NCBI GenBank assembly: GCA_965648905.1
Contig: CBFGIT010000010.1
Coordinates: forward strand, 43,914 to 107,913
Reading direction: 5' to 3'
Length of the DNA stretch: 64,000 nt
Source: a candidate division WOR-3 bacterium
Lineage (GTDB): Bacteria; Hydrothermota; Tepidihabitantia; Tepidihabitantales; Tepidihabitantaceae
Of the stretch, positions 26,013-41,811 are shown piece after piece (position 1 is the first letter of the stretch; every line of letters begins with the position of its first letter). The position numbers and the translations under genes are program-made. The notes beneath the pieces were generated by a model that saw only the letters and a list, made by a program, of their open reading frames with translations, did not search any database and was not told where the DNA came from.

Positions 26013-27698
26013 CTACTGGTCGGCGCGAACGAGCTTCAGCTCGCGGCCGTCGTCGGTCCGGCAGAACCAGACTCCAGGCGGCAGAGAGCCGAGCCTTAAG
26101 GACACGCCAGATTGCAGATTGGGGATTGCAGATTGCAGGACCAGGCGGCCGGCCGGGTCGTAGATGGAGAGAGTGATGAGTGGTGAGTGATGAGCGATGG
26201 GTCGAGGAGTGAGGAGGATCTCGACAAGGTCGCGCACCGGGTTGGGTCGGGCTGAGAGTCCGGCGAGTCGCTCTAGTCCGGCAGGCGCGGCAGCGCCGAC
26301 CGGCGTGGTGTTGAGGAACAGGTGGTTGCCGTTCGGCTGGTCCCAGTTGGTGACGACCAGGTCCGGATGAGTCGAAACCCGGGTGAAGAACCGGACCTGG
26401 CTTGACTCGGGCGGCGGGTTCGCAAAGCTGACCCAGGCGCCCAGCAGGTCGCAGCAGTAGCCGGAGCGCGGAACCGGCACGCCGTTGACCTTGATGCTGT
26501 CGAGAGACTGGAGCGGGCCGGTCTTGCGGATGGTGAACAGACTGGTTCGGCCGTCACCGGTGACCGCCACTTCGCAAGGGACAAGGTGCGAGTTATTGAT
26601 GTCGGCCCAGACCAGGGCTTCGCAGACCAGGTCATACCGGTTGGCCGGAGACCAGGACCAGGTTGCAACCGTATCGAGCACGCCGGCCCGGTTCTCAAAC
26701 ACGACCGCAGGACGCCACCAGCCGCCTGCGGCCAGCTCCGGGTACCCGTCGCCGTTCGCGTCGGCCCAGGCAACACACGAGGAGTAGAGGCTTGAACCCT
26801 GGCGCAGCATGTTGAAAGTGGCGATGGTGTCGAACGTGCCCTGGTTGTTGTGAAACACCTTGATGCTGTTCGGGTCGCCAAGCTGGTCGTTGCAGGCTGC
26901 GGCAAGGTCGAGCCAGCCGTCCAGGTCATAGTCGCCGAACGCCAGGCGCAGGCACCAGCCGATGTTCCGGGTCGCAACCCAGGAAGGGGTATTCTCCAGC
27001 ACGCCGGAGTTGTTCCGGTACATCGAGATGCGTCGGCGCTGGCCGACAAAAAGGTCAAGGTCGCCGTCGTTGTCGATGTCGCAGAGTCGGATGGCGTCGG
27101 ACGGAGTGCCCTGGTTCGCGGTCCAGAACGGCAGCGTGTCGAGCACGCCCGAGTTGTTGCGGTAAACTCGGGCTGAATCGGTTGAGCCGGTATAGGCGTC
27201 GCCCGCCGAGATGGCGAGGTCCAGGTCGCCGTCAAGGTCAATGTCGCCCAGGCAGCAGTCGAACGAGGAGTGCTGGTCACGGGCCCGCCAGTACGGCGCA
27301 GGCGAGAGCGTGTTGCCCGAGTTGCGGTACACCCGGGCGAGGAAGTCGCCGGCCGTCCCGGCCCCGAGGTAGCCGACCGCGAGGTCGTCAAGCCCGTCGT
27401 TGTCGATGTCGCCGGCATAGCAGTGGCCGAAGTAGCCGTTGTCGGACGAGCGCCAGGAAGCACCGGACTCAAGCGTACCGCCCCGGTTCAGATAGACCGA
27501 GTTCTGGTTCAGGGCCATGTCGTTGCCGTTCGATACACACAGGTCGAGAAAGCCGTTGGTATCGACGTCGGCAACCGCACCGCCGGTTGAATAGTCGTTG
27601 TCGTTTGATGTCCAGTTCGGAGCCGAAGGCAGCGGGACCAGAGCCGGTGCAGCAGACCAGGCAATCAGGACCAGACCCAGGACGCTCAGTTTGCGCAT
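26013..27698 (-). CDS. Secreted FG-GAP/VCBS-repeat protein with T9SS-like C-terminal domain
   Basis: Signal peptide; repeated (G)DxDxDGxxDL; C-terminal PNP...YDPAGRLV...LPPGVWF. Confidence 0.82.
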   Translation of the reverse strand: MRKLSVLGLVLIAWSAAPALVPLPSAPNWTSNDNDYSTGGAVADVDTNGFLDLCVSNGNDMALNQNSVYLNRGGTLESGASWRSSDNGYFGHCYAGDIDNDGLDDLAVGYLGAGTAGDFLARVYRNSGNTLSPAPYWRARDQHSSFDCCLGDIDLDGDLDLAISAGDAYTGSTDSARVYRNNSGVLDTLPFWTANQGTPSDAIRLCDIDNDGDLDLFVGQRRRISMYRNNSGVLENTPSWVATRNIGWCLRLAFGDYDLDGWLDLAAACNDQLGDPNSIKVFHNNQGTFDTIATFNMLRQGSSLYSSCVAWADANGDGYPELAAGGWWRPAVVFENRAGVLDTVATWSWSPANRYDLVCEALVWADINNSHLVPCEVAVTGDGRTSLFTIRKTGPLQSLDSIKVNGVPVPRSGYCCDLLGAWVSFANPPPESSQVRFFTRVSTHPDLVVTNWDQPNGNHLFLNTTPVGAAAPAGLERLAGLSARPNPVRDLVEILLTPRPIAHHSPLITLSIYDPAGRLVLQSAIPNLQSGVSLRLGSLPPGVWFCRTDDGRELKLVRADQ

Positions 27699-27754
27699 AG
27701 TGGGCCAGTCTAGTTCATTTCGCCACCAGGGTCAAGCCGGCCGTCGGCCCGGTG

Positions 27755-29242
27755 CTACCTGGTCAGAACGACCCGGTGCGTGCGGCCGGATGCGCTCGGG
27801 ACAAAGTAGACACCGGGCGTAAGGCGGGAAAGGTCGTTGGCACCAGGCCGAAGCGACCGGACACGACGGCCGGTGGCATCGACCAGGTCGGTTGTCTGAT
27901 TGCCGGCGAGAAGCAGGATTCGGCTTACGACCGTGGCCGGCTCGGCAGCGCGAATGCGGGCCGGGCCAAGGGTTTCGGCCAGAGCAGTCGGAACCCGGGC
28001 CTTGAGCGTGCCGTCACCAACCAGGCACATGCCGTAGAACCACGACTGCTCCCAGGGCTCAAGGCCGTCCATCATGCGCCAGTAGAACCAGACAACCAGC
28101 GCCTCGGCCAGGGGCCGACCCTCGAACAGAGCGTAGTAGAAGTCCTCAAACCGGAGCATCGAGCCGGTCTTGGTCGAGCCGACCGCGCCCAGTCCGGTTG
28201 AGGTCTGGAACACATAGCAGCCGCCGCAGAAGTTACGCTCGACAAATCGGGCGTTGGAACAGGCGAAGAGATTGTAGAAATTCGCGCACGGGTCGAGTCC
28301 GGCAATCTGGTCGGCGTAGAAGTAGTCCCAGTTCTGGCCGTTGTTATATTTCATTGCGTGGCCGCCCGGCCAGGAATGAGAGCAGAGCTGAATCCACTGG
28401 TAGGCGGCAGTGTCAATCCGGGGACGATAGTCGCGGACCCGGGTCGTTTCGCGCTGCCAGACAAAGACCCGCTCCGGGTACAGATACCCGACCGCATAGT
28501 CCCACTCCGACGCATAGGGAACCCAGTCGTCGTCGATGTAGACCAGGGCCCGGTCAGTGACCGGCAGGTCGCCGTTCCGATACCGGTGGTTCCGGGAAAG
28601 ATAGCGGCTGAGCAGGGTGACTTCGTTGCCGACCACGGATGCAGGCAGACGCGAAACCGCCAGTTCGGGCACGATGTCGCCGTCGTGCTGGTCGTAGATG
28701 CCGTCGGCGCCCGAGACCAGACTGTCAAGGGTATCGAGTCGCACCATCTGGTCGGCCCAGTTGCCGTTGATGTCGGCGAAGAAAAGGTCACAGGGGAACT
28801 CCTCGTAGCCCTCGTCCGGGTCGCGGCGGCGGTTTGAATTCCAGTCGTCAATCATCTGGAACCAGGCCACCGGCAGGTCGCCGACGAGCACGGCATGACG
28901 CACGCCCAGCTCGTACTCGCGGGCAAGGAAAGCCCGGAGCGACTCAGCCGACGTGGCTGCGACCGAATAGAGCATCGGCGCATGGCCTTCCTGGACAAGG
29001 TCGGCAAAGAGCGTGTCGAGCTGCAACCGGAGCGGGGCGACAAGCTCCTCTTCAATCAGCACGTCGACCCCGGGTTCGAGCCGGGGCCCGACCGAAGAAA
29101 TCGGCCGGATGCGCCAGACCGGGCCTGCGGGTCGGGATTCAAGCCAGGATGAATAGCTCAGCGGCCGCGAGCTGTCCGGGCTCTGCCAGCGCAGGACCTG
29201 GACCGAAGGAACGGCGACCAGAGCGAAGATGAGAGCGAACAC
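27755..29242 (-). CDS. Secreted C25 (gingipain-like) cysteine peptidase-domain protein with C-terminal sorting domain
   Basis: VLVGDLP, DLFFADING, PELAVSRLP, SHS...FACSN (His/Cys dyad), LVGDGTL, DATGRRV...PGVYFV. Confidence 0.7.
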   Translation of the reverse strand: MFALIFALVAVPSVQVLRWQSPDSSRPLSYSSWLESRPAGPVWRIRPISSVGPRLEPGVDVLIEEELVAPLRLQLDTLFADLVQEGHAPMLYSVAATSAESLRAFLAREYELGVRHAVLVGDLPVAWFQMIDDWNSNRRRDPDEGYEEFPCDLFFADINGNWADQMVRLDTLDSLVSGADGIYDQHDGDIVPELAVSRLPASVVGNEVTLLSRYLSRNHRYRNGDLPVTDRALVYIDDDWVPYASEWDYAVGYLYPERVFVWQRETTRVRDYRPRIDTAAYQWIQLCSHSWPGGHAMKYNNGQNWDYFYADQIAGLDPCANFYNLFACSNARFVERNFCGGCYVFQTSTGLGAVGSTKTGSMLRFEDFYYALFEGRPLAEALVVWFYWRMMDGLEPWEQSWFYGMCLVGDGTLKARVPTALAETLGPARIRAAEPATVVSRILLLAGNQTTDLVDATGRRVRSLRPGANDLSRLTPGVYFVPSASGRTHRVVLTR

Positions 29243-29286
29243 ACGACAGCGTAGCCCGCAGGGCGCGGCTTGTCAACCTCGCGCAG

Positions 29287-29321
29287 GCAGGCGGCAGAGT
29301 GCAGCCTTCTCTGCCGCCTGC
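29287..29321. terminator. 13-bp hairpin downstream of the capsid-like gene (possible terminator)
   Basis: GCAGGCGGCAGAG-N9-CTCTGCCGCCTGC; no clear U-tract. Confidence 0.45.
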
Positions 29322-29364
29322 TGGTTCTCAGCGCCCGGCGTGATGCGTCGGGCGCAGCGCGCCG

Positions 29365-29742
29365 TTACGGACTCGATGGCGGCGCGATGTTGAAGACGCC
29401 GGTGCGGATGGTCTCGAGCACACTGCGGGCCAGGCCGCGGGCCACCCATTTCACAATGAGCAGCTCGGCCTCAACCGACGCAGACTCGCCGGAGACCTCG
29501 CGCCCGTGGGTCAGATGCCAGAGCTCCCGGCCGAAGCTCAGGTACGAGGGGTACAGGATGATTGAGACCCCGGCCAAATCCAGCACCTGCTTGACCTGGG
29601 ACTCCATCGTCGCAATCAGCGCGAACACGGACTGGACCCGGGCGAGCATGTCGGCCCGCTTCTTGTCCATCCGCGCCTTCACCTGGTCGGTGTCGAAGTT
29701 TGAGTCCCAGTTCATGACTCTACGGACTGGGTCAATCGGCAT
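29365..29742 (-). CDS. Hypothetical helical protein resembling SIRV2/Adnaviria-type major capsid protein (paralogue 1)
   Basis: Strong RBS GAAAGGAGGTGA before ATG 29742; aligns with the 31468-31917 product (RRV..W, E..V.QV.D.A.V, Y..FGREL, KW..RGL). Confidence 0.6.
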   Translation of the reverse strand: MPIDPVRRVMNWDSNFDTDQVKARMDKKRADMLARVQSVFALIATMESQVKQVLDLAGVSIILYPSYLSFGRELWHLTHGREVSGESASVEAELLIVKWVARGLARSVLETIRTGVFNIAPPSSP

Positions 29743-29881
29743 GGTTGTCACCTCCTTTCGGCAACGTGATTGGCGTCCTTACCATGGCGGACGCCGGTTG
29801 CGGCCTGAGTTCGGGCCAGGCGTGGCCTGCGCCTGCTGCCGGCTCGTGCTCAAGCATCACGGCAATCGTCGGTTCGGTCAT
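29732..29881 (-). CDS. Small hypothetical ORF (49 aa)
   Basis: Its ATG overlaps the upstream stop (ATGA), and it overlaps the start of the capsid-like gene. Confidence 0.35.
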   Translation of the reverse strand: MTEPTIAVMLEHEPAAGAGHAWPELRPQPASAMVRTPITLPKGGDNHAD

Positions 29882-30150
29882 TGCTGAACTCCGATGTCGA
29901 CAATGAGCTGCCGCACGACACTCGCGGTATCGGTCCACTCAACGTGGTTCATGTACTGCCACAGCAGCTCGACCAGGGCCGCCTCGAGCAGCCGGCGGTG
30001 CATAGACCGCAGCCGCTTCTCCTGACAGGCCAGCAGCGCCAGCGCCTGCCGGCCGTGCTTCGTGGCCGGAACCAGGCGCTGGGCATCGACCGTCAACTCA
30101 AGCAGGTCGGCCACGCGGTCGGCTTCCTGGACAAGGCGTGCGGCATTCAT
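29878..30150 (-). CDS. Hypothetical alpha-helical protein (90 aa)
   Basis: GAGAGG RBS before ATG 30150; lies directly downstream of the shared upstream motif. Confidence 0.55.
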   Translation of the reverse strand: MNAARLVQEADRVADLLELTVDAQRLVPATKHGRQALALLACQEKRLRSMHRRLLEAALVELLWQYMNHVEWTDTASVVRQLIVDIGVQQ

Positions 30151-30176
30151 GGCTGGCCTCTCTTTCTCGTGGTTCA

Positions 30177-30214
30177 TCACTGGAATTGGAGAAACCGACC
30201 GGCCCGGACGCAAC
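30177..30214 (-). promoter_or_regulatory. Bipartite motif copy 1 (putative ECF-sigma promoter)
   Basis: GTTGCGT-N11-GGTTTCTCCAATTCCAGTGA on the minus strand. Confidence 0.65.
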
Positions 30215-30299
30215 CTGGGCGACGAACCCGGCGCTTCGCTGACAAACGCGACCGCCCCGGTACACCGGGGCGGCTGCCCGCTACGACTGTCGGCCTGGG

Positions 30300-30761
30300 C
30301 TACTTCTTGCGCTTACGCGGTCGGCGCTGACCGGCCGCGCGCTTCGGCCCGGCGCTGGGGCCCGCACGTCTCTTTCGGCGCGGTCTTGCCGGCGCGACCT
30401 CTTCTACGCCCAGGGTCGTGACGTCCGCGAGGCGTCGGTTTGGTGGCCTGAGAGCTGCTTGTCGGCCTGTTGCCGCGGGCCCAAGCACCGCGGCCAGCCT
30501 GTCCTCTGGCCGTTCGACAACAGAGAGCAGCCGGGCCAGCAGCGTCGCGAACGCCTCTTTCTCGTCTTTGCCCTCGACCGCCATCACGACCTCATCGCCC
30601 GGCTCAGGGCCCAGGGTCATGACTTCGAGGTCGTCCTTGCCGTTGACCGTTTCCCTGCCCAGGCTGAGCGTGACCGTTGACCTGAATCGCGCTGCTGCGC
30701 GTGCAAAACCGAGCGCGGCTTCGGCGTTCCAGCCTTCAACCGCAATCGCGACCTTAGTCAA
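30300..30761 (-). CDS. HPr-fold protein lacking His15 and Ser46, with a basic C-terminal tail
   Basis: AARFRSTVTL...VNGK...VMTLG...GDEV...VEGKDEKEA matches HPr; GWNAEAA replaces GLHARPA; KDDL replaces KSIM. Confidence 0.75.
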   Translation of the reverse strand: MTKVAIAVEGWNAEAALGFARAAARFRSTVTLSLGRETVNGKDDLEVMTLGPEPGDEVVMAVEGKDEKEAFATLLARLLSVVERPEDRLAAVLGPAATGRQAALRPPNRRLADVTTLGVEEVAPARPRRKRRAGPSAGPKRAAGQRRPRKRKK

Positions 30762-31425
30762 TTGACCTCCTCTGGTCGCGCTTCTCTTTCAGCACTTCGC
30801 GGCCGCGCTTCAGATGGTTCCGCACGTCGCTCGCGCTCACCTTGAGTACCAGGGCGATCTCGCCGGGCGACAGCCCGGCCATGGTCAGGTAGAACACTTC
30901 TCTGGTCTGCGGGGTCAGCAACTCGCGCACGTCTTTGACCACTTCGAGCAGCCGCTCGCGCTGCTCGTGGTCTCTCTCGGGCGTGTGCTGTCTGCTAACT
31001 GTCAGGGCCTGTTCAATCTGGGTAATCCAGTCTGCCTCCTGGGGCCGTGCCGCGCCCTGGTCCTCAACGTCGTCGGATTGACCGGGTGAGTCGAACTCGA
31101 CCTCGCGGCCGGCCACGACCAGCACCGCCTTCTGTTCCTTGAGCAGCCGAAACTTGTAGATGCTGTACAGCCAGGCAAAGAACGACGAACGACCCTGGAA
31201 CGTGCCGACATTGTTGAAAGCATCGGCCAGCGTATCCTGCACCACTGCCTCGGCCCGAGCCCGGTCATGCAGCGAGGACGCGGCGTGGTTCAGCAGACCC
31301 TGCCGGTACTTCCTGTCCAACTCGTCGGCCGCGGCGTGGCCGTCCAGAATCCGGGCCACGGCATCAGCGTCCGGGTCCTCGGGCCGGCAGGGCCGGCGTG
31401 GCCTGGGGGCTTCACTCTTGGCCAT
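30754..31425 (-). CDS. ECF-type RNA polymerase sigma factor
   Basis: Region 2: AEAVVQDT...FQGRSSFFAWLYSI. Region 4: LTPQTREVF...GLSPGEIALVLKVS...VRNHLKRGRE. Confidence 0.9.
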   Translation of the reverse strand: MAKSEAPRPRRPCRPEDPDADAVARILDGHAAADELDRKYRQGLLNHAASSLHDRARAEAVVQDTLADAFNNVGTFQGRSSFFAWLYSIYKFRLLKEQKAVLVVAGREVEFDSPGQSDDVEDQGAARPQEADWITQIEQALTVSRQHTPERDHEQRERLLEVVKDVRELLTPQTREVFYLTMAGLSPGEIALVLKVSASDVRNHLKRGREVLKEKRDQRRSID

Positions 31426-31467
31426 GACGTTTCCTCACTGTAGTGCGGATTCGTCCCAAGTCAACGG

Positions 31468-31917
31468 CTACCGGCCATTGCGCAGGATGCCCAGTTCCTC
31501 GAGCACCTCGATGACCGCGGCCTCGACTCTGTCCAGCAGAATCGGGTCCAGACCCCGGACAGCCCACTTGTAGCGGACAATCTCGAACTCGGACTCCTGG
31601 CACGACGTCGGCACTGTGCGCCAGATGCGGCTCAGCTCGCGGCCAAAGTCGTTGTACCAGAATCGGATCAGGCCCGGCACGCAGGCCGCGTCGGTCACCT
31701 GGGCCACAGCCTGTTCCACCCGGCCCTGCAGCTCGGCCTGGGTGCGATACCTCTGCTGCATCTGCTCAGTTCGGAACGCGAGCCGACCAGCCAACCGCTC
31801 CGGCGTGTACTTCGCAGCCCACTTGGCAACGCGGCGCCTGACCTGCTCGGCCACCGGGTCGGGCGGCGTCGCTCCGGCATCCGTCATTCGAACTTCGTCG
31901 TCAGCACTTCTCTTCAT
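31468..31917 (-). CDS. Hypothetical helical protein resembling SIRV2/Adnaviria-type major capsid protein (paralogue 2)
   Basis: RBS GAAAGGAG before ATG 31917; RRVAKWAAKY...VPGLIRFWYNDFGRELSR...GLDPILLDRV. Confidence 0.6.
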   Translation of the reverse strand: MKRSADDEVRMTDAGATPPDPVAEQVRRRVAKWAAKYTPERLAGRLAFRTEQMQQRYRTQAELQGRVEQAVAQVTDAACVPGLIRFWYNDFGRELSRIWRTVPTSCQESEFEIVRYKWAVRGLDPILLDRVEAAVIEVLEELGILRNGR

Positions 31918-31928
31918 GAGTGCTCCTT

Positions 31929-31966
31929 TCACTGGCATTAGAGAAACCACGACCCCAAAACGCAAC
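31929..31966 (-). promoter_or_regulatory. Bipartite motif copy 2 (putative ECF-sigma promoter)
   Basis: GTTGCGT-N11-GGTTTCTCTAATGCCAGTGA on the minus strand, with the same spacing as copy 1. Confidence 0.65.
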
Positions 31967-32017
31967 ACCGCCCGTTCATCCGTCCTCACTTCTGCTTGCT
32001 TCTGTCTTTTCTTCACG

Positions 32018-32061
32018 TCTGCCATTCTGCACTCTGCAATCTGCATTCTGTCTTCTGCCTT
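32018..32061. repeat. Heptamer tandem repeat (TTCTGCA-like x6)
   Basis: tctgcca ttctgca ctctgca atctgca ttctgtc ttctgcc. Confidence 0.75.
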
Positions 32062-32676
32062 TGTCCTACCATATGACCATCCCCTGGCTGGTAAGGGGGA
32101 CGGTTCCCCTTTCCGAGCCCCCTGCCCCGACCCCGGCCCAACCCCCCTGGGCTAGCCCCGGCGCAGCGGCTACGCCTTCCCCTGCCCCAATCCTTTCGGC
32201 AACCCCTGCGCCTGCCGCCGCCCCGGGGGGTTCGGCGGCCAGGGCCCAGGCCCGATGCGTTCGCGGTTCCCCAGCCCGGGCCCAGACCGGTGTCGACCCC
32301 CCTTCCCATCCGCCCGCGCCTCCCCTTGCCCAACCCACCGCGACACCCCTCAGCCCGGCCGCAGAATTGCCGTCTGCGCGGTCTTGACTTGCGCAAGCTC
32401 AGCATTATTCTGTCGGACGATGGAACGCCAGTCGCTTGGTCCCGGGGCCCCTGGTGCGGGCAGGCGGTCGCTTCGACTCCGACGCCCGGGTCCGGGAGTT
32501 CCGTGGGTTCGTTGCGAAGCAATGGGGCGAGTCGGGCCACGACCGTATCGCACGGGCAGCAGTCTGGGCCCGGCCAGTGATGTCGGTTCCCTGTCCGGGA
32601 TACTCTGAAGCGAGGTAAGCTGGATGTCTCCCAACCTCTGGCACGTGCTCTTGACCCGTGCAACAGCCCGGGACGC

Positions 32677-35595
32677 ATGAGCACCGACTACCACGCGCAG
32701 TACTGGGCGCACGAACTGACCCGCCGCCGTGCGTCGGATGAATCGGACAAGTTCTCGTCTACGTTCTACAACGCCACCGTTGACCTGAACCCGCACCAGA
32801 TTGACGCGGCTCTCTTCGCCTTCCGCAACCCGCTATCGCGCGGCGCGATTCTGGCCGACGAGGTCGGCCTCGGCAAGACCATCGAAGCCGGACTGGTCAT
32901 CAGCCAGCTTTGGGCCGAGCGCAAGCGTCGTATCCTCTGTGTCGTGCCCGCGTCCATCCGCAAGCAGTGGCTGCAGGAGTTGCAGGAGAAGTTCTTCGTC
33001 CGGGCCACGATTCTCGAAACCGCCAGCTTCAACCAGGCGGTGCGCAACGGAACCGTGAATCCATTCGAGCGGGACGGCACCATCGTTATCTGCTCCTACA
33101 ACTTCGCTCGGACCCGTGAGAACGAACTGCGTCTCGTTCCGTGGGACCTCGTTGTGGTTGACGAGGCCCACCGTCTGCGAAACGTCTACAAGTCGGGCAA
33201 CAAGATTGCGAAGTCCATCTACGACTCCCTGCTGGAGCGGCCCAAGCTCCTGCTCACGGCGACCCCGCTCCAGAACTCGCTCATGGAGCTGTACGGCCTG
33301 GTCAGCTTCGTAGACGCCCACCTGTTCGGTAACGAAGACGCGTTCCGAGACCAGTATGCGCGGTACGGCGCAGACCTTGCCCCGGAGACCTATGCCGAGC
33401 TGCGTGCCCGACTGGCGCCGGTCTGCCAGCGAGCACTCAGGCGTCAGGTAGTTGAGTATGTCCGCTACACCAACCGCACCTCACTGACGCAGGACTTCTC
33501 GCCCACCGAGGACGAGGTCCGGCTCTATGAAGCAGTGTCCGGCTACCTGCAGCGGCCCGAATCGTTCGCCCTGCCAAAGAGCCAGCGCCAGTTGCTTACG
33601 CTCGTTCTGCGCAAGATTCTGGCATCATCTTCCTACGCAATCGCGGCCACCCTCGGCACCATGCTGGAACGCTTGGAGGCGTTGGAGGCAGGCCTCAAGG
33701 ACTCCGAAGCGCCTGACGTTGCCGATGCTGTTGCGACCGACTTCGAAGCCTTGGGGCAGACTCAAGAAGAGTGGACTGAGGCCGACGACGATGTCGTTGC
33801 CCGCGAGCGCAAAGCGAGCGACTCCGAGGAGCAGAAACGCATGCTAGAACTGCTCCGGGCCGAGATTGCCGACCTCCGCTCATACAAGGAACTGGCCACG
33901 TCCATTGTCGAGAACGCCAAAGCCAAGGCCCTGCTTTATGCTCTGGATGCCGGGTTCCGCAAAGCCGCAGAGCTCGCCGGCCCGCGTAAGGCGCTTATCT
34001 TCACCGAGTCCCGCCGCACCCAGATGTACCTGAAGGACTGGCTGGTGAAGAACGGCTATGCCGGGCAGGTCGTCACCTTCAATGGCACGAACACCGAGCC
34101 CGACTCAAAGCGCATCTACCGCGAATGGCGCGAGCGCCACAAGAACGACGACGCCGCTACCGGCTCGGCTTCGGCCGACATGCGTTCTGCCCTTGTCGAG
34201 GAGTTCCGGGACCGCGCCGCAATCATGATTGCCACCGAATCCGGCGCTGAGGGCGTCAACCTCCAGTTCTGCAACGTGGTCATCAACTACGACCTGCCCT
34301 GGAATCCCCAGCGCATCGAGCAGCGCATCGGCCGTTGCCACCGCTACGGTCAGAAGCACGACGTGGTTGTCATCAACTTCCTCAACCGCAAGAATGCGGC
34401 GGACCAGCGCGTATTTGAGTTGCTCCGCGACAAGTTCCGGCTCTTCGACGGCGTCTTCGGCGCTTCGGACGAGGTGCTTGGTGCGCTCGGCTCCGGCGCG
34501 GATTTCGAGAAGCGTATCAACGATATCTACCAGTGCTGCCGCACGCCCGAGGACATCACCAAGGCGTTCGACCAGTTGCAGCTCGACTTCGACGAGCGCA
34601 TCCAGTCCCGGCTGAGCGACGCCCGTGCCAAGCTGATGGAGAACTTCGATGAGGAGGTCCACCGCAGGCTCAAGCTCTATCAGAACGAAACTGATAAGCA
34701 ACTGGACCGGTTCCGTGAGTGGCTCTGGTTGCTCACCCGGCACGAGCTCGGCGACGCTGCCTTGTTCGGCGAAGGCCATTCATTCCGGCTGGACCGCGCG
34801 CCGGCAGGCGTCCGACTTGAACCGGAGCATCTCGGTCAGTATCGGCTGGTGACCGAGCGTAACGGAGAGCCCGAGCACCACTACCGCATCGGACACCCGC
34901 TGGCCGTGCAGCTCATCGAACGGGCCAAAGCACGAGCACTCTCGCCGTGCGAGGTTGTCGTCCGTTACGACCTGCACCGGGCGGCAAACCCGCGAATCAG
35001 CCTCGTAGAGGCTCTACAGGGCAAGACCGGCTGGCTGCGGCTTGGGCTGCTAACCGTGGACTCGTTCGAGCGGGAAGAATACCTGGTCTTCGCGGCAATG
35101 TGCGACGACGGCTCCCCGCTTGACGACGAGACCTGCCGCAAGCTGCTCTCAGTTGATGCCGAAACCGGAGCCACAGCCGCGCTGCCGCCGGACAAGTCGA
35201 GAGCGCTGGACGGACTTGCGAGAGAGTCGCAGGGCCGACTCCTTGCCCGCGTGACGGAGCGCAACCAGAAGTACTTCGAGCAGGAAATCGAGAAGCTCGA
35301 CGCATGGGCAGAAGACCTGAAAGAGAACCTCGAGCGAGAGCTGAAGGAATTGGACCGCGAGATTCGGGCGACCAAGAAACAGGCCCGGCAGATGATGGAC
35401 CTCGACCAGAAGGTCGCCCTGCACAAGAAAGCCAAAGAGACCGAGCGCAAGCGCAACGACAAGCGCCGGGCGCTCTTCGACCAGCATGACGCGATAGATA
35501 GGCAAAAAGACAGCGTGATCACGCGCGTCGAAACGCAACTCGCCCAGAAGGTCGAGATGAAGAAGCTGTTTGAGATAAGATGGAGGGTGGTGTAG
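32677..35595 (+). CDS. SNF2-family helicase (type III R-M-associated, RapA-like)
   Basis: LADEVGLGKT, VVDEAH, LTATP, EGVNLQ, DLPWNPQRIEQRIGR; C-terminal coiled coil. Confidence 0.93.
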   Translation: MSTDYHAQYWAHELTRRRASDESDKFSSTFYNATVDLNPHQIDAALFAFRNPLSRGAILADEVGLGKTIEAGLVISQLWAERKRRILCVVPASIRKQWLQELQEKFFVRATILETASFNQAVRNGTVNPFERDGTIVICSYNFARTRENELRLVPWDLVVVDEAHRLRNVYKSGNKIAKSIYDSLLERPKLLLTATPLQNSLMELYGLVSFVDAHLFGNEDAFRDQYARYGADLAPETYAELRARLAPVCQRALRRQVVEYVRYTNRTSLTQDFSPTEDEVRLYEAVSGYLQRPESFALPKSQRQLLTLVLRKILASSSYAIAATLGTMLERLEALEAGLKDSEAPDVADAVATDFEALGQTQEEWTEADDDVVARERKASDSEEQKRMLELLRAEIADLRSYKELATSIVENAKAKALLYALDAGFRKAAELAGPRKALIFTESRRTQMYLKDWLVKNGYAGQVVTFNGTNTEPDSKRIYREWRERHKNDDAATGSASADMRSALVEEFRDRAAIMIATESGAEGVNLQFCNVVINYDLPWNPQRIEQRIGRCHRYGQKHDVVVINFLNRKNAADQRVFELLRDKFRLFDGVFGASDEVLGALGSGADFEKRINDIYQCCRTPEDITKAFDQLQLDFDERIQSRLSDARAKLMENFDEEVHRRLKLYQNETDKQLDRFREWLWLLTRHELGDAALFGEGHSFRLDRAPAGVRLEPEHLGQYRLVTERNGEPEHHYRIGHPLAVQLIERAKARALSPCEVVVRYDLHRAANPRISLVEALQGKTGWLRLGLLTVDSFEREEYLVFAAMCDDGSPLDDETCRKLLSVDAETGATAALPPDKSRALDGLARESQGRLLARVTERNQKYFEQEIEKLDAWAEDLKENLERELKELDREIRATKKQARQMMDLDQKVALHKKAKETERKRNDKRRALFDQHDAIDRQKDSVITRVETQLAQKVEMKKLFEIRWRVV

Positions 35596-37581
35596 ATGTA
35601 TCTGGCTCGTGTCGAGATCACCAACTTCAGAATCTTCGGAGGCACCATCGGGAAGAACGGGGTGGTCGAGGCACCTGGGTTGGCGCTTGACCTTCGTCCC
35701 GGGTTGAATGCTCTTGTGGGCGGGAACGACTCGGGCAAGACCGCGTTTGTTGATGCAATCCGTGCCCTCCTGGGCATGACAAGCGATGAGTCGTACCCTC
35801 TTTCCCGCGAAGACTTCCACGTCTCTTCCGAGGGACCCGCAAAGGACTTATGGATACAGGGCGAGTTCCGGGAATTGACCAACGACGAAGGAGCTGCCTT
35901 GCTTGAGTGGCTCTGCCTTTCCGAGGTAGGCGGCAGGAAGCAGCCCGTGTTGCGGCTGATCATGCACGCGCACCGGTTTGAGCTTGTCGACAGGACGAGT
36001 CGGTGGGACAAGGAGATTGAAATTGAGGTGAAGGCGGGAGCTACGTTCGAAACCGGCAAACGCATGCAAGGCAAGGCGCGGGAGTTACTGCGGGCGACCT
36101 ACCTGCGACCTCTACGTGACGCTGACCGCGAGCTTTCCGCTGGTCGCGGCTCGCGTCTATCCCAGATTCTGGCCGCCCACCCAGACTTCAAGAAGGGCGA
36201 CCCGGGAAAGCCTCACCGTCTTGAGGAGATTGTGAGGAAGGCCGACACTGACGTACGCGGAGTAGCCTTGGTGAGGGCTGCCGTCAAAGACATCAACGAG
36301 GGCTACCTATCTCGACTCTCCATCCGGCAGAATCAGCTAGAAGCGGACATTCGCATGTCGCGCGTAGAGCTACGGAACATACTGGAGAGAATGGAGCTTC
36401 TGCTTCGGCCACCGAAGGGAATGCCCGACATGGGCGACCAGCGCTTCGACATTGAGCGCGGAATGGGATACACCAATCTGCTATTTATGGCTGCGGAGCT
36501 CCTGCTACTTGATAAGCGTACCACGCCGGCCATCCCTCTCGTCTTGATTGAGGAGCCGGAGGCGCACCTGCATCCTCAGTTGCAGGTCCGGCTGATGGAG
36601 TTTCTGGAGGAGCGCTGCTGCCCCGGCCAGGATAGCAGTGACAAGCGGACGCAACGTTGCCCACAGGCCATCGTGACAACGCACAGTCCGAACCTGGCCT
36701 CCGCGGCTGATGTTGAGAGTCTCATTCTATTTGAGCACGGACACGCGTTCCCGATGGGGCACAGCGCGACGGCACTTGCCGAGGGCGACTACGCTCATCT
36801 CCGACGTTTCCTGGACACTACCAAGGCCAACCTCTTCTTTGCGACTGGGGTGATGCTGGTCGAGGGCACGTCGGAGCAGATACTGGTTCCTGAGTTGGCC
36901 AAGATGCTGGGACGTCCGTTCGCCGAGTTCGGGGTTAGCGTAGTCACCGTGGGACACAAGGGTCTGTTCCGATATTCCAGGATATTCCAGCGCCTGCAGG
37001 GAGAAGCTCCGGACATCCGTGTGGCGTGCGTGATGGACACGGACGTCGCCTCGGACTGGAAGGTCGTTGACCCTGTCTACGGCAGACCTGAGAAGACTAC
37101 TGAGACGAACGTGGTCGAAGCCAAGAAGGAGAAACTGAAGAAGAGGTACAACGGCGGCCCTGTCCTTGCATTTGCTTCCACGCGCTGGACTCTGGAGCAC
37201 GACCTGGCCTTGGCTGGCTTGGCCCAAGAGGTCTATGCCGCGGTGCTGCTTGCTCAAGACAGCGAGAACGCGTCCGAGGTTGGAGCTGAGCAAGTGACGC
37301 AGGCGTTGGAGAAAGCGAACGCAGAGCTAGATGTGTGGCAGAAGGACGGATTCACTCCCGATAGAACCGCGTGTCAGGTCTACGCGTACCTGCTGGAGTC
37401 TGGTGTATCCAAGGCAGTCACTGCCGAACGTCTGGTGCAGATTCTCTGTCACGAAGTGGATGGTGACCGACTCGATGTAAATGCGCTGAAAGGAAAGCTC
37501 CCGGCCTACCTGATTGACGCTATCAACTACGTGACACGGGCAGACGCGAGCGCCCCCAAGACCGAGGAACCAATCAATTGA
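35596..37581 (+). CDS. OLD-family ATP-dependent endonuclease (GajA-like)
   Basis: GGNDSGKT, IEEPEAHLHPQ, TTHSP; TOPRIM motifs LVEG.SE and MDTD. Confidence 0.9.
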   Translation: MYLARVEITNFRIFGGTIGKNGVVEAPGLALDLRPGLNALVGGNDSGKTAFVDAIRALLGMTSDESYPLSREDFHVSSEGPAKDLWIQGEFRELTNDEGAALLEWLCLSEVGGRKQPVLRLIMHAHRFELVDRTSRWDKEIEIEVKAGATFETGKRMQGKARELLRATYLRPLRDADRELSAGRGSRLSQILAAHPDFKKGDPGKPHRLEEIVRKADTDVRGVALVRAAVKDINEGYLSRLSIRQNQLEADIRMSRVELRNILERMELLLRPPKGMPDMGDQRFDIERGMGYTNLLFMAAELLLLDKRTTPAIPLVLIEEPEAHLHPQLQVRLMEFLEERCCPGQDSSDKRTQRCPQAIVTTHSPNLASAADVESLILFEHGHAFPMGHSATALAEGDYAHLRRFLDTTKANLFFATGVMLVEGTSEQILVPELAKMLGRPFAEFGVSVVTVGHKGLFRYSRIFQRLQGEAPDIRVACVMDTDVASDWKVVDPVYGRPEKTTETNVVEAKKEKLKKRYNGGPVLAFASTRWTLEHDLALAGLAQEVYAAVLLAQDSENASEVGAEQVTQALEKANAELDVWQKDGFTPDRTACQVYAYLLESGVSKAVTAERLVQILCHEVDGDRLDVNALKGKLPAYLIDAINYVTRADASAPKTEEPIN

Positions 37582-39692
37582 GCGCGGCTGCATACGAAAC
37601 ACATGCTCGAATCGGCGGAAGCCCGGTCGAAGTCTGGGGTCCAGCTTTTCGGGTCTCGGCGGACGACATCCAGCACGTTCAGCATGAGTTTGGACCTCCT
37701 TACGACTTCAGGACGCGGGAACGCGAAGCCTTCCTGCAATCCATGAAAACCCAAGACGTCGTCGCCTGCGCCGGAAGCGGCAAGACGACTCTCTTGGCCG
37801 CGAAGCTGGGGATACTTGCAGATAAGTGGCCGTTCTCACACCGAGGAATCGCGGTTCTGTCACATACGAACGCGGCGCGAGAGGTCGTCGAGGACAAGCT
37901 TTCGGCAGCCGAAGCCCATGACCTCACCAGCTATCCTCATTTCGTAGGCACCATTCAGAGCTTCGTTGACCGGTTCCTCGCCATCCCGGCCTGCATCGAG
38001 TACTTTGGACATCGGCCCACTCCCGACGACGACAAGCTGTGCCGTACCCTGCGGGGAATCTACGATCGTCGCCGGGGCGAACTCAAGGCAGCCGCAGTGC
38101 ACGTGCGACAGCGATGCAAGAAGGACAGTCTCTACGCCGAGAGGTTCTTTCGCGGACTCCAGTACCAGTACAAGGGCGGCGACCTGTGGCTGCCGATAGT
38201 GAGAAAGTCCAAAGGCGGCAGGGCGCACTACCGGACTGAGTCGAACACCTATCGACAATTCTGCAGCATCAAGGAAGAAGCACAAAGCGCCGGCGTCTGG
38301 GGCTTCCGCGACATGTTCGCCCTGGCGGAGAAGTACATCGCGGACTGCCCGCGGGTCGCGGAGCTACTCAGATGGCGCTTCCCGCTCGTCTTCATTGATG
38401 AAATGCAGGACACATCGGCTGCGCAGTGGCGGCTGCTGGACTCGTTGTTCGGAGGTGATGTAGTCGTGCAGCGGCTTGGTGACCCGAACCAGCAGATTCT
38501 GGCGGACGATGAAAACCCTGACGAAGAGACGACTGGGTCGGAGTTTCCTCGTAATGACTGCCTTACCCTACCGTACTCGCTCAGGCTGAGCCGCTCTATC
38601 GCCAAGCTCGCGCAGAGCGTTGCCGTGAGACAGACCGTCCTTGTCGGGTGCAGCAATCGCAGAGATGACCTGCCGCATACTGTGTTCCTGTTCGACAAGT
38701 CAAGCGTCTCACGCGTGCTGGAGGAGTATGCACGTCTTGTCCTCCGCGGTTTCACCGACGAAGACCTAGCCGACCATGAGAATAGAGTCGTGGCCATCGG
38801 CGCGGTGCAGCGTCGCGGAAGAGATGACACAAACTTCCCGTATTCGCTCTGCGACTACTGGGACAAGTACGAACCCAAGACAGAAGGTCCTGCCGAGAGG
38901 CTGGCGTGTCTCGGCGACTACGTGCTTGCCGGCGAGGACGAAATGCTCGCCGACGGCGATTGCGAGCACGTCCTGGACAGGATGATGGAAGGCCTTGCCG
39001 AACTCCTGCGCCGCAACGGTACACCGCATCCTCAATCGAAGAAGCCCTTCACCCTCTCGTCTTTGACCGACTTCCTACGGGAAACACAAAGTGTGGAGTT
39101 CCTCGAAATGAAAGACGCCATGTTCAGGCGCTACCGGGCGGCAGAACGAGCCACGAGCGTGAACGTAGAGAAACTCAGCGAGTGGACGCGCCGTTCACTC
39201 TTGGCGTTGACTGGCGGCAGGTGGAACAAGGAGGCGCGGGCGTTCCTGGAAGGCAAAGCAACACCGCGGATGAGTGGTCATGCTCCCACGGGCACTTCCT
39301 CAAGTCTGCAGAACGAGTACGAGTACAAGGAGGAAGGACGGAGTGTGTCGGTTTCCGTGGGCACCATTCACTCGGAGAAGGGCAAGACGCACCTGGCCAC
39401 GTTGGTCCTACAAACCCACTGTTTTGAGCAGGACCTTCCTATCGTACTGCCTTGGATTGTCGGCAGGCGCGAGAGGAAGCCGAAGATACGCACGGCGATG
39501 CATGTTCGTCGTGCCCACGTCGCAATGACGCGGCCCAAGGAGCTGCTCTGCCTCGCCCTCTGCAAGGACACACTACCCGCTGGATTCGACACGTGCTGCC
39601 TCAATGCACGTGGCTGGCGCATCACCGACCTCACAACAGGACGGCCCGAGAGCGAGGAAGACCCCGTTAACGCAGGCGGCGATGACTCCTAG
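37578..39692 (+). CDS. UvrD-like helicase (GajB-like)
   Basis: ACAGSGKTT, LSHTNAA, GTIQSF, FIDEMQD, LGDPNQQI, TIHSEKG, VAMTRP; overlaps the OLD gene stop. Confidence 0.9.
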   Translation: MSAAAYETHARIGGSPVEVWGPAFRVSADDIQHVQHEFGPPYDFRTREREAFLQSMKTQDVVACAGSGKTTLLAAKLGILADKWPFSHRGIAVLSHTNAAREVVEDKLSAAEAHDLTSYPHFVGTIQSFVDRFLAIPACIEYFGHRPTPDDDKLCRTLRGIYDRRRGELKAAAVHVRQRCKKDSLYAERFFRGLQYQYKGGDLWLPIVRKSKGGRAHYRTESNTYRQFCSIKEEAQSAGVWGFRDMFALAEKYIADCPRVAELLRWRFPLVFIDEMQDTSAAQWRLLDSLFGGDVVVQRLGDPNQQILADDENPDEETTGSEFPRNDCLTLPYSLRLSRSIAKLAQSVAVRQTVLVGCSNRRDDLPHTVFLFDKSSVSRVLEEYARLVLRGFTDEDLADHENRVVAIGAVQRRGRDDTNFPYSLCDYWDKYEPKTEGPAERLACLGDYVLAGEDEMLADGDCEHVLDRMMEGLAELLRRNGTPHPQSKKPFTLSSLTDFLRETQSVEFLEMKDAMFRRYRAAERATSVNVEKLSEWTRRSLLALTGGRWNKEARAFLEGKATPRMSGHAPTGTSSSLQNEYEYKEEGRSVSVSVGTIHSEKGKTHLATLVLQTHCFEQDLPIVLPWIVGRRERKPKIRTAMHVRRAHVAMTRPKELLCLALCKDTLPAGFDTCCLNARGWRITDLTTGRPESEEDPVNAGGDDS

Positions 39693-40410
39693 CCACGGCG
39701 TCGGACGGGGTCGATGCTGGGCGTACGCGCTGTACGCGGGCCTGGCAAGCATGCTGAGCCAGCTTGGTCATGTCTGGGTGTACGCCGCTCGCGGAGGACA
39801 CGAACTGCGAACTTGGCGCAGCACCGTGATACCTATCAGCACCGGCATATGGGGCTCAGTCCTGTTTCTGCTGATGTCTGTCGCCGTCAGCCTGCGAGTG
39901 TTGCCTTCCCTGTATCGGCAGAAGCCCAGCGTCATGTTGACTTGGGGAATGGTCTACATGCTGGGCATGGGCTCACTGTCGCAGCTTGTCTTCTCCAGTC
40001 TGATGCGGGTGGCATACGAGGTTTCCTTCTACGCTGTCGTGGTAGCGTCGATGTTCGTGGTGCGGTTCTTCACGTCCGATAAGGCACTGAGCATGAATCT
40101 GCAAGGTACGACTCACTCACAACGACTCTGGCACCTGGCGAGGACCCTCATTCCTGTCAGCGCGGCGTGGCCCGTTGCAGTTCTTGGCATCAGCATGATA
40201 AGGGACTTCTACCCGGGCGAACCGGAGGTAGCCAAGGCCCAGCTCTACAGGCACGCCATCATGGCCGTCCTCACGGTTGTTGGTTTGCTCGCGTTCGTTA
40301 TCCTCCCGATTCTGGCCCGAATCGTGGAAAGCGAGGTGGGCGAGGCTGACGATGGAGTTGAGGAAGTGTCGACGAGACAGGCAGACAAAGACGATGCACG
40401 GCAAGCTTGA
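39682..40410 (+). CDS. Hypothetical multi-pass membrane protein
   Basis: About six hydrophobic segments; ATG 39682 overlaps the end of the UvrD gene. Confidence 0.6.
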   Translation: MTPSHGVGRGRCWAYALYAGLASMLSQLGHVWVYAARGGHELRTWRSTVIPISTGIWGSVLFLLMSVAVSLRVLPSLYRQKPSVMLTWGMVYMLGMGSLSQLVFSSLMRVAYEVSFYAVVVASMFVVRFFTSDKALSMNLQGTTHSQRLWHLARTLIPVSAAWPVAVLGISMIRDFYPGEPEVAKAQLYRHAIMAVLTVVGLLAFVILPILARIVESEVGEADDGVEEVSTRQADKDDARQA

Positions 40411-40439
40411 GCTGACCTGGGTCGGGAAGGATGAGCGGC
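40394..40439 (+). repeat. Direct-repeat copy of the first 46 bp of mod
   Basis: Matches 41879-41924 at 44 of 46 positions (MHGKLELTWVGKDER vs MRGKLELTWVGKDER). Confidence 0.92.
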
Positions 40440-40442
40440 AAA

Positions 40443-40491
40443 GAGGAGTGAGGACTGAGGAACGAGGACTGAGGACTGAAGACGGAGGAAG
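40443..40491 (+). repeat. GAGGAxT heptamer array
   Basis: gaggagt gaggact gaggaac gaggact gaggact gaagacg gaggaag. Confidence 0.85.
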
Positions 40492-40552
40492 CTGGACGAT
40501 GAGCCGCGAGGCGGGAAGCCGAACTTGACCGTATGAACTTATAGGTTAATAT

Positions 40553-40933
40553 ATGCTGAGTCTCAGGCTCTTGGAGTCCGGGCCGGCCCGGGATGTCTAC
40601 GCGCTGGCGGTCGGCGACCGGTGTGAGGTAACTCAGTTCATTGCCGGGCTTGACGTTCGGGCAAGGCAGCACCTGTTCCATGCCTTTGAGCGCCTGGCAC
40701 AGACCGGATGGGCCGGGCAGAGTGGGACCGTGTTCAAGCGCTTGGTAGCCGACGTGTACGAAATCAAGGAGCACGTCTCGAACAGCCGGGTGTTCTGCTT
40801 CCTTGAGGGACGGCGCGTAGTCGTCTGTACCCATGCGCGTACGAAGCCGGCCGGTAAGGCCAGATACCGGGACGAGATTGAGAAAGTGAGGTCGTGGCGG
40901 GCGCGTTGCATCGCCGCAGGAGTACTATCATGA
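40553..40933 (+). CDS. RelE/ParE-superfamily (Gp49-like) toxin
   Basis: FKRL..DVYEIK....SRVFCF.....VVVCTHA..K pattern; toxin-first order with an HTH gene. Confidence 0.75.
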   Translation: MLSLRLLESGPARDVYALAVGDRCEVTQFIAGLDVRARQHLFHAFERLAQTGWAGQSGTVFKRLVADVYEIKEHVSNSRVFCFLEGRRVVVCTHARTKPAGKARYRDEIEKVRSWRARCIAAGVLS

Positions 40934-41364
40934 TTGAACGAGACAATTGGTATGAAGCACAGAGGGCGGAGTTCGACAACGACCCGGACTACTGGGCCGA
41001 GGCACTGAAGCTCGACTTTGCCGAGGAGGTCGGGCGGTTGATGGAAGAGCAGAAGGTCAGCCGGGCCGAGCTGGCCCGCAGGCTTGGGACTTCTCCAGCC
41101 TACGTCACCAAGATTCTGCACTGGACCGCGAACCTGACCCTGCAGAGCATGTCCAAGATAGCCCTTGCGTTCGACTCCCGCGTCGTGCTTGCAGTGGCAC
41201 CAAAGGACGCCCCGCTGGGAACAAGGCCCGCCCGAGCGCGGATTCCTGCCCGCCGCACGCGCCGGCACGAGTTCGCTGCCGCCGACCTTCCTACCCGCTC
41301 CGGGCGCAACGAGTTCATCGCGTCCGACAAACCTGTCCGCGCGAAGAAGAATAGCAAGGAATGA
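40930..41364 (+). CDS. XRE/HTH antitoxin
   Basis: VSRAELARRLGTSPAYVTKIL...NLTLQSM; ATGA overlap with the toxin stop. Confidence 0.85.
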   Translation: MIERDNWYEAQRAEFDNDPDYWAEALKLDFAEEVGRLMEEQKVSRAELARRLGTSPAYVTKILHWTANLTLQSMSKIALAFDSRVVLAVAPKDAPLGTRPARARIPARRTRRHEFAAADLPTRSGRNEFIASDKPVRAKKNSKE

Positions 41365-41403
41365 GGAGTGAGGAATGAGGAATGAGGAGTGAGGAACGAG
41401 GAT
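41357..41403 (+). repeat. GAGGA(A/G)T heptamer array upstream of the four-helix-bundle gene
   Basis: aggaat gaggagt gaggaat gaggaat gaggagt gaggaac gaggat. Confidence 0.9.
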
Positions 41404-41758
41404 GAAGGAGAGGACGAAGGAGTTCGCTCTGAGGGTCGTTCGGCTCTACGCGTCGTTGCCCAAGTCCGTAATCGCCCAGACGCTGGGCAAGCAGGTACTG
41501 CGGTCTGGCACGTCGGTCGGCGCGCACTACCGGGAAGCAGTCCGCAGCCGGTCGGACGCCGAGTATATCAGCAAGGTAGAGGGCGCGTTGCAGGAGCTTG
41601 AGGAGACCGCGTACTGGCTCGAACTACTGGCCGACTCGGGAGCCTGCACGGCGGAGACCGTAGCGGCCCTGCGCCACGAGGCCGACGAGCTTACGGCCAT
41701 GCTCGTAGCCTGCGCCAAGAAAGCGAAGGTGAAGAGAGGAATGAGGAGTGAGGAATGA
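41402..41758 (+). CDS. Four helix bundle protein (23S rRNA intervening-sequence protein / Avd-like family)
   Basis: ERTKEFALRVV...QVLRSGTSVGAHYREA..SRS.AEYISK....QELEET.YWLELL. Confidence 0.9.
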   Translation: MKERTKEFALRVVRLYASLPKSVIAQTLGKQVLRSGTSVGAHYREAVRSRSDAEYISKVEGALQELEETAYWLELLADSGACTAETVAALRHEADELTAMLVACAKKAKVKRGMRSEE

Positions 41759-41811
41759 GGAGTGAGGAATGAGGAGTGAGGAATGAGGAGTGAACAATGA
41801 GGAATGAGGAC
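41736..41811 (+). repeat. GAGGA(A/G)T heptamer array downstream of the four-helix-bundle gene
   Basis: About 10 alternating gaggaat/gaggagt units. Confidence 0.9.

Follow-up and report, generated by a model that had tools for sequence, protein, structure and literature searches.

A bacterial sigma-factor module with two paralogues related to the Adnaviria capsid protein

The locus

The stretch of DNA considered here (the window) comprises 64,000 nucleotides of contig CBFGIT010000010.1 in assembly GCA_965648905.1, from a candidate division WOR-3 bacterium of the order Tepidihabitantales, phylum Hydrothermota. Five genes, all on the minus strand, lie within positions 29365-31917. The two outermost encode small paralogous proteins, A and B, which share ancestry with the major capsid protein of the Adnaviria, its N-terminal arm included. 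Between them stand the genes for an extracytoplasmic function (ECF) sigma factor and an HPr-like protein, and a small open reading frame (ORF). The features of the module are:

29365..29742, minus strand: protein A, 125 amino acids, the conserved A-type paralogue with predicted SIRV2 fold, downstream of the sigma gene (ORF)
29748..29758, minus strand: strong ribosome-binding site AAAGGAGGTGA preceding A (sequence reading)
29878..30213, minus strand: small conserved ORF, 111 amino acids (ORF, with homologues at the matching position in related loci L028 and L035)
30300..30761, minus strand: pseudo-HPr, 153 amino acids, an HPr fold followed by a basic low-complexity tail (PF00381)
30754..31425, minus strand: ECF-type sigma factor, 223 amino acids (Sigma70_r2, Sigma70_r4_2, TIGR02937)
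31437..31464, minus strand: match to a sigma-70-like promoter, TTGACT-16-TACAGT, between B and the sigma gene (consensus scan)
31468..31917, minus strand: protein B, 149 amino acids, a fast-evolving upstream-type paralogue with predicted SIRV2 fold (ORF)

Much of this layout had been described in an earlier note made from the DNA letters alone. The ORFs confirm that all of the module's genes share the minus strand, and the near gap-free alignment of A with B that the note reported is borne out by BLASTP, which aligns 123 residues at 29% identity and with 7 gap positions (E 3e-13), a paralogy far beyond chance. The two proteins do bracket an ECF sigma factor and an HPr-like gene, as the matches to Pfam, TIGR02937 and PF00381 demonstrate. 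With regard to the two small ORFs which the note had placed between A and B, the one at 29878-30213 recurs in two related loci, and no support was found for the second.

Relationship to the Adnaviria capsid protein

To our knowledge, earlier work on the origins of capsids has reported no cellular homologue of the Adnaviria capsid protein. Our literature search found no paper on bacterial or cellular homologues; it did not extend to subscription journals, so a prior description is possible. In the accessible parts of three publications (PMC10848233, PMC12282232, PMC7189273) the capsid fold is presented as unique to archaeal viruses, and a preprint (10.64898/2026.09.15.751708) deals, in its accessible part, with a different virus group.

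Two family profiles, one built from 12 of the 13 paralogues in the bacterium's own genome and a deeper one of 132 sequences, were searched against the sequences of the PDB. With the first, the top seven matches were all Adnaviria capsid proteins, led by SFV1 6d5f (3e-6), SSRV1 6wq0 (5.7e-6) and SIRV2 3j9x (1.8e-5) and including 3f2e and AFV1 5w7g chains A and B. The deeper profile gave 8.5e-9 for 6wq0, 3.1e-7 for 3j9x, 2.1e-6 for 6d5f, 1.5e-3 for 5w7g_A and 3.2e-3 for 5w7g_B, with the first unrelated chain at 0.31. Capsid matches span about 110 of the roughly 130 residues, so that the similarity covers most of the length of the proteins, and the N-terminal arm, with its R..(K/R)(W/Y)..K motif, lies within the alignments. 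Comparison of the family with SIRV2 ORF134 by hhalign returned a probability of 92.7% (E 4.3e-7, 112 columns). Profile searches, which the earlier note had proposed as a check, yielded Adnaviria matches. The motif resemblance to the SIRV2 coat protein that the note described is also real: in BLASTP, B and ORF134 are 27% identical across a 74-residue alignment (E 3e-5), in which RRVAKWAAKY lies opposite QRYAKWQAKF, and FGRELSR opposite FGLKVAR.

When the 132 members were scanned singly, 54 had a match to PF12193 (Sulf_coat_C) at E<=0.1, the best at 8.7e-8, 8 had one to PF25647 and 6 one to PF21660. One tandem-fused member, P0019, passes the curated cut-offs of both PF12193 (39.7 bits) and PF25647 (29.4 bits). 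B itself reaches 17-18 bits against a cut-off of 25.2 for PF12193 and 13.7-14.6 against 27 for PF25647, and A has no match to either model in the Pfam scan. Since both fall below the gathering cut-offs, they are assigned to the wider superfamily and kept apart from the curated viral families. No NCBIfam model covers the bacterial family.

AlphaFold models of B (pLDDT 93.0, pTM 0.74) and A (pLDDT 92.3, pTM 0.73) consist of a short helix, a very long helix and then a three-helix C-terminal part. The SIRV2 architecture expected by the earlier note, in which a helical arm at the N-terminus leads into a four-helix bundle at the C-terminus, is present in both predicted structures. Foldseek assigned a probability of 1.00 to 3fbz and 3j9x and its ranking agrees with the sequence searches, with weak E-values (5e-3 at best). 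The family is basic, with a median net charge of +5.5, a median pI of 9.6 and a pI above 8 in 90% of its members, and about ten of its conserved columns are basic. DNA binding by the family is plausible. Two matched stretches occur in 11 of the best 150 matches, and these natural tandem fusions may mimic a dimer; a search for longer fused forms found none, which is weak evidence. A different fusion was seen on contig C5 (L014, 8699-9361, minus strand), where an N-terminal XRE-type helix-turn-helix (HTH) domain (HTH_31, 1e-9) is joined to a single capsid-like domain, a connection of the family with proteins that bind specific DNA sequences.

A recurring module with two evolutionary layers

Species-representative genomes were searched with an alignment of seven A-type sequences, which recovered 34 related loci from nine metagenome-assembled bacteria, with up to eight loci per genome. 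The order that recurs in these relatives is one of fast-evolving paralogues, then the sigma gene, then the conserved A-type gene. In 24 of the 34 loci the gene immediately upstream of the A-type gene, on the same strand, encodes a sigma homologue, and Pfam added one more (L040). The remaining nine comprise four truly solitary genes, two fragments and three loci interrupted by the end of a contig. Between one and three further family members precede the sigma gene in 11 loci. The bacterium's own genome has three sigma-linked modules, one in the window and one each on contigs C52 and C1, and many solitary copies of the family lie without a sigma gene nearby. The survey of neighbourhoods in related genomes that the earlier note had suggested finds the family in chromosomal operons with sigma genes and not confined to proviruses.

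In a tree of 70 family members the groups follow operon position. All proteins encoded downstream of a sigma gene form one tight, short-branched clade, and those from upstream positions fall into separate long-branched clades. The same separation is evident from 12 complete modules compared over 66 non-independent pairs, in which median identity was 62.8% for the A-type proteins (range 48-86%), 26.9% for the sigma factors (17-50%) and 26.2% for the upstream paralogues. The latter diverged along with the sigma factors (Spearman coefficient 0.40) and the A-type proteins did not (0.15), over these same non-independent pairs. SIRV2 ORF134 was also placed on the family tree. It falls on a long branch next to another long branch, and this placement was set aside as giving no inference on the direction of transfer.

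Most A-type genes of 32 loci are preceded by a strong conserved ribosome site, GAAAGGAGGTGA, and several of those in relatives have a CTCTTTGACAA element 75-105 bases upstream. The leaders of A-type genes (for example window 29743-29880, and those of L028 and L035) also contain conserved GC-rich inverted repeats, such as GGCAGCAGGC...GCCTGGCC and CCGCAACCGGCGTCCGCC, which may form a structure in the RNA or terminate the preceding gene.

Iterated HMM searching of the bacterium's 3.0-Mb genome yielded 13 paralogues, on eight contigs. Beyond it, a HMMER scan of 1.84 billion representative proteins returned 1,444 clusters (at 50% identity) with E<=1e-3, 519 of them at E<=1e-10, mostly of 120-160 amino acids; relatives are labelled 'hypothetical protein' in the sources where they are named at all, with no Pfam domain listed. 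The taxonomic spread was assessed in 201 genomes of the phylum, being the bacterium's own, 34 others of its order and 166 of other orders, at a threshold of E<=1e-5. Every one of the 34 other genomes of the order (1.4-3.0 Mb) has matches, with 3-21 per genome, and none of the 166 genomes from other orders has any.

Some copies in the bacterium's own genome are irregular. On contig C21 (L016, 7897-8238, plus strand) only the last 111 bases are common to A (92.8% identical) and the N-terminal half is unrelated, and the copy on contig C11 (L015, 7935-8306, plus strand) is truncated past the middle of the domain. Recombination between paralogues may have produced them, or they may be decaying. Identical C-termini in four A-type copies were considered as a possible recombination or attachment site, an idea that we rejected: the DNA similarity ends at the stop codon and the whole genes are 74-79% identical, and so they are simply conserved paralogues.

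Other components of the module

Membership of the sigma factor in the ECF class is supported by Sigma70_r2 and Sigma70_r4_2 of Pfam and by TIGR02937, for which it scores 70.2 bits against a cut-off of 42.9. The consensus scan for sigma-70-like promoters gave two sites where 0.3 were expected, each being a pattern match only.

The HPr-like protein carries the HPr family signature (PF00381, 50.6 bits against a cut-off of 23, E 2e-13), lies just under the cut-off of TIGR01003 (43.6 against 47.9 bits) and finds HPr and Crh chains as its best PDB matches (E 6e-7 to 8e-4). When it is aligned to the HPr chain 1rzr_T, His15 is replaced by Asn, Arg17 by Glu and Ser46 by Asp. Because the phosphorylatable His15, with Arg17, and the regulatory Ser46 have all been exchanged it is taken to be catalytically dead, a pseudo-HPr, which is the label that the earlier note had given it and which proves apt. 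It shares the HPr fold with HPr and Crh of the phosphotransferase system but differs from them in lacking these residues, in its basic tail and in its place within a sigma operon, found in one of the 34 related loci.

In the second module of the genome (L009, contig C52, 1201-2229) the pseudo-HPr is fused to an extra domain of about 230 residues in place of the tail. This domain has a match to PDC-M19A (4e-14), a candidate defence protein of PADLOC, and another to the tail of a model for type I specificity subunits, and a free-standing homologue follows the sigma gene in the relative L057, adjoining AbiJ- and GmrSD-type genes. A SocA_Panacea or PadR identity for it appeared as a weak lead in the ESM Atlas, among otherwise unnamed clusters, and was dropped since Pfam did not confirm it (PadR 0.036).

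The small ORF has homologues at the same position in L028 (E 1e-38) and L035 (E 3e-33), and this recurrence identifies it as a real gene; it has no match in Pfam, PADLOC or NCBIfam, nor a usable one in the ESM Atlas. It accompanies the HPr-like gene in only one of the 34 loci (L028), and L035, which is cut at the contig start, has the small ORF alone. The pair thus appears to be a local addition to the module.

At the upstream end of the module, an AAAGGAG ribosome site precedes the start of B, the ATG at 31917. A longer B beginning at 32046 was rejected, as the extension enters a dispersed repeat and the ribosome site belongs to the ATG at 31917. This repeat of about 120 bp occupies 31982-32100, just upstream of B, with weaker matches from 31904. 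At least nine further contigs carry copies that are 80-87% identical, and since several of these copies lie at the ends of contigs the repeat probably breaks the assembly. Heptamer tandem repeats (TCTGCAA x3.6, CAGATTG x4.4 and GAGTGAT x6.4) were noted at window positions 32009-32058 and 26108-26216. Arrays of 12-bp DNA repeats were found neither next to the module nor on contig C52, and an Rfam scan of 27000-34000 gave no match.

Genomic surroundings

The right flank of the module is a compact defence island (window 32677-49321, plus strand), in agreement with the earlier note, which had placed the module at the edge of one. PADLOC identifies here a DrmD-like SNF2 helicase (2e-218), the Gabija proteins GajA (2e-180) and GajB (5e-140), and the methyltransferase (1e-146) and restriction endonuclease (1e-107) of a type III restriction-modification system. 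The DrmD-like helicase stands alone without other DISARM genes, and the island also includes two unassigned ORFs, a 23S-rRNA-IVP-family protein and a Ppl/SMC-like ATPase of 1,034 amino acids. Of the other two modules in the genome, that on C52 faces an Eco57I-type enzyme and that on C1 lies next to genes for a helicase-nuclease, a NucS-like protein and DUF5131. Also on C1, two upstream-type paralogues in tandem (L010, 17957-18726, minus strand), with neither a sigma gene nor an A-type gene after them, form the far end of a 10-kb stretch (helicase-nuclease, NucS-like, DUF5131, DprA-like) that has the sigma/A-type module at its other end, so that this island looks bracketed by family members.

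Fifteen of the 34 related loci were scanned for neighbouring domains, and seven of them hold restriction or defence-type domains, namely TIR with HsdM, DUF499, BanI with a methylase, DUF3800 with Fic, two HsdM, an Eco57I-type enzyme and Schlafen/AlbA_2, some of which we take to be defence domains. The other eight are flanked by housekeeping or secreted-protein genes. Paralogues in the bacterium's own genome neighbour genes for thiolase, enoyl-CoA hydratase, prolyl-tRNA synthetase, secreted proteases and restriction enzymes, and in two relatives with few copies these lie beside ribBA-nusB, tig-clpP-clpX, groEL, clpB, or restriction and abortive-infection genes. Proximity of the modules to variable DNA (restriction, defence and secreted-protein genes) is thus a tendency. 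The GC3 of the paralogues matches that of the host, and the A-type genes are conserved and have a high GC3 like host genes.

No viral genes were found in these surroundings. As the earlier note had stated, no integrase, replication or packaging gene adjoins the module: among the 28 proteins around it there is none of these, and no virion, terminal-protein or glycosyltransferase gene either, and the window has no tRNA gene. A scan of IMG/VR with the A-type alignment, made with two peptide patterns only, gave 202 pattern matches of which none encodes a relative, which is weak evidence, and a tblastn search of P0019 against 50,697 phage records found no match. PHROGs gave no match to a structural family, and weak matches to families of unknown function (phrog_7510 at 1.6e-4 for P0008 and 5e-3 for the C1 copy). 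Of the module's proteins only the sigma factor has matches in PADLOC-DB 2.0, two weak ones to CARF3 (E 2e-4), and there are none for A, B, the pseudo-HPr or the small ORF.

Comparison with known systems

The nearest relatives are the capsid proteins of the Rudiviridae (SIRV2 ORF134, 3J9X; SSRV1, 6WQ0; the SIRV-YNP C-terminal domain, 3F2E; PF12193). In the accessible text of PMC12282232 the viral protein is described as dimerising and wrapping double-stranded DNA (dsDNA), and there and in that of PMC10848233 the hosts of known Adnaviria viruses are archaea only. The bacterial family differs in being chromosomal and many-copy, in its association with sigma genes and in the lack of viral genes. 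A and B also fall below the Pfam cut-offs, and the A-type proteins are far less basic (net +2, against +9 for the SIRV2 protein). Paired capsid proteins occur in the Lipothrixviridae, Ungulaviridae and Tristromaviridae (AFV1 ORF132/ORF140, 5W7G, 3FBZ and 3FBL; SFV1 VP4/VP5, 6D5F; SIFV, 6WQ2; PFV2, 6V7B). Unlike these, the bacterial paralogues have a sigma gene between them and differ greatly in their rate of evolution, their module has no envelope or other virion genes, and their heterodimer is putative.

H-NS, Lsr2, MvaT and Rok are nucleoid-associated, xenogeneic-silencing proteins of bacteria. The likeness of the bacterial family to them would be functional only, in that both are small, basic and multi-copy, have paralogues often on or beside acquired islands, and are proposed to form DNA-coating filaments. 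No relation of sequence or fold was detected, and for the bacterial family this function is a proposal. We know of no counterpart among such proteins to the tight pairing with private ECF sigma factors. H-NS has been described, in the accessible part of a preprint, as silencing defence loci (bioRxiv 10.64898/2026.09.05.749240). The earlier note had also drawn a comparison with the alpha/beta-type small acid-soluble spore proteins. Pfam searches with A and B at E<=1 returned no such family, so that analogy is functional only. The module further recalls ECF sigma/anti-sigma pairs, whose sigma gene is likewise followed at once by the gene of a small helical protein and which a genome may hold in many diverged copies. 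However, the downstream protein of the module does not co-diverge with the sigma factor, has a capsid fold, is basic and occurs also in solitary copies, and Pfam and NCBIfam recognised no anti-sigma domain in it.

Possible function of the module

It is suggested here, with a probability of roughly 0.55, that A and B are cellular, non-proviral members of the superfamily whose dimers wrap dsDNA, and that the two-layer module coats variable or invading DNA. Like the viral protein, A and B would act as homodimers or heterodimers and would bind and wrap dsDNA by means of the conserved basic residues. The slowly evolving A-type subunit, with its very strong ribosome site, could provide a common building block, and the one to three fast-evolving upstream paralogues, of which B is an example, could together with the private ECF sigma factor set a separate target or trigger for each module; additions peculiar to the module of the window would be the pseudo-HPr and the small ORF. 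The outcome might be a local, chromatin-like nucleoprotein coat which silences, shields or marks variable regions, or coats invading DNA, and not the formation of virions. Since the modules tend to sit at the borders of variable DNA, local coating of DNA is the most likely role, and the domesticated, sigma-regulated DNA-coating system put forward in the earlier note probably remains the best reading. Several points weigh against it. Both DNA binding and the control of A by the sigma factor are what we infer from sequence, the A-type proteins are only mildly basic at the charge given above, and several A-type genes in relatives have a TTGACA-like element of their own and a long leader, which leaves control by the neighbouring sigma factor a presumption. 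A more specific extension is offered tentatively, as something we would not expect to hold in full. The family may be the cellular counterpart of the Adnaviria capsid protein, as its ancestor or as a domesticated descendant, and dimers of a conserved A-type protein with its fast-evolving partners may form capsid-like coats on dsDNA, possibly in the A-form. Each module would be under the control of its private sigma factor, and the coats would silence or protect defence and other variable regions, or DNA entering the cell.

The main rival is that the upstream paralogues are anti-sigma-like partners of the sigma factors. According to this explanation, which we consider unlikely, the SIRV2-fold proteins are soluble helical bundles serving as anti-sigma or co-sigma factors for the ECF sigma factor of the operon, with the pseudo-HPr as a partner-switching element; any role in coating DNA would have been lost, or would never have existed. 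It would account for the tight linkage in 24 of the 34 related loci and in the three modules of the genome, for the correlation (0.40 over 66 non-independent pairs) between the divergence of upstream paralogues and that of sigma factors, and for the copy fused to another DNA-binding regulator domain, the XRE HTH; moreover, nothing else in the module was identified as a candidate anti-sigma factor. The classical anti-sigma position, downstream, is nonetheless held by the A-type proteins, which are 48-86% identical where the sigma factors are 17-50% identical, and this failure to co-diverge weakens the explanation for the A-type. Many copies are solitary, and the family is basic and retains the motif found in alignment with the viral capsid protein's N-terminal arm. 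The module proteins have no anti-sigma domain match in Pfam or NCBIfam, and the structural matches listed include no such domain, a negative that leaves room for one. We regard as doubtful, at best, a role in anti-virus immunity, in which the proteins would coat or trap incoming DNA, or poison the assembly of bacterial viruses of an unknown kind with a SIRV2-type capsid, with the private sigma factor as a switch. All three sigma-linked modules of the genome adjoin defence-type genes, as do seven of the 15 scanned loci and several loci of the low-copy relatives, the C-terminal domain of the C52 HPr fusion matches PDC-M19A, and the many fast-diverging module copies fit an arms race. Adjacency to defence islands is however typical of any accessory gene, and presence in every sampled genome of an order is unusual for defence genes. 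Apart from the weak CARF3 matches of the sigma factor the module has no PADLOC match, and no bacterial virus with such a capsid was found in the IMG/VR scan or the phage collection.

The other possibility raised in the earlier note, a remnant of an unknown bacterial filamentous virus, would make the module a decayed provirus or mobile element of an Adnaviria-like virus of bacteria, with A and B as its capsid genes. Two paralogous capsid proteins are present in most Adnaviria, according to the accessible part of PMC12282232, the module adjoins an island of horizontally mobile genes, and the dispersed repeat of about 120 bp abuts B. Against this, no integrase, terminal protein, glycosyltransferase, packaging or replication gene is nearby and the window lacks a tRNA gene. 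The 13 copies are scattered over eight contigs, many of them between housekeeping genes, and all 34 sampled genomes of the order have the family. No relative emerged from the two-pattern scan of IMG/VR, and the A-type genes are conserved with a host-like, high GC3. We consider a provirus very improbable and reject this reading; encoding by a viral genome was not found. Least credible of all is a chance resemblance, by which a generic basic helical bundle would be unrelated to the viral capsid protein. Helical proteins match one another easily in structure searches, and the best Foldseek E-value was 5e-3. Four independent sequence methods nevertheless agree, pointing only to Adnaviria capsids over nearly the full length, and the E-values improve as the profile deepens from 12 to 132 sequences.

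Significance

The alpha-helical capsid protein by which the realm Adnaviria is defined, and which was thought to be unique to archaeal viruses, is now linked to cellular genes of bacteria, in a large and unannotated family present in every sampled genome of one order. As the family has so many copies and is so regular within this order, the origin of the capsid becomes testable, both as to whether it passed from cell to virus or from virus to cell and as to the domain across which it did so. The bacterial members are simple, mesophilic and expressible proteins with which protein-induced A-form DNA could be studied. The module, furthermore, points to an undescribed type of operon, in which a private ECF sigma factor is combined with putative DNA-wrapping proteins at the borders of defence islands. 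If the proposed role is true, bacteria would possess a new form of chromatin or immunity that makes use of a 'viral' capsid fold.

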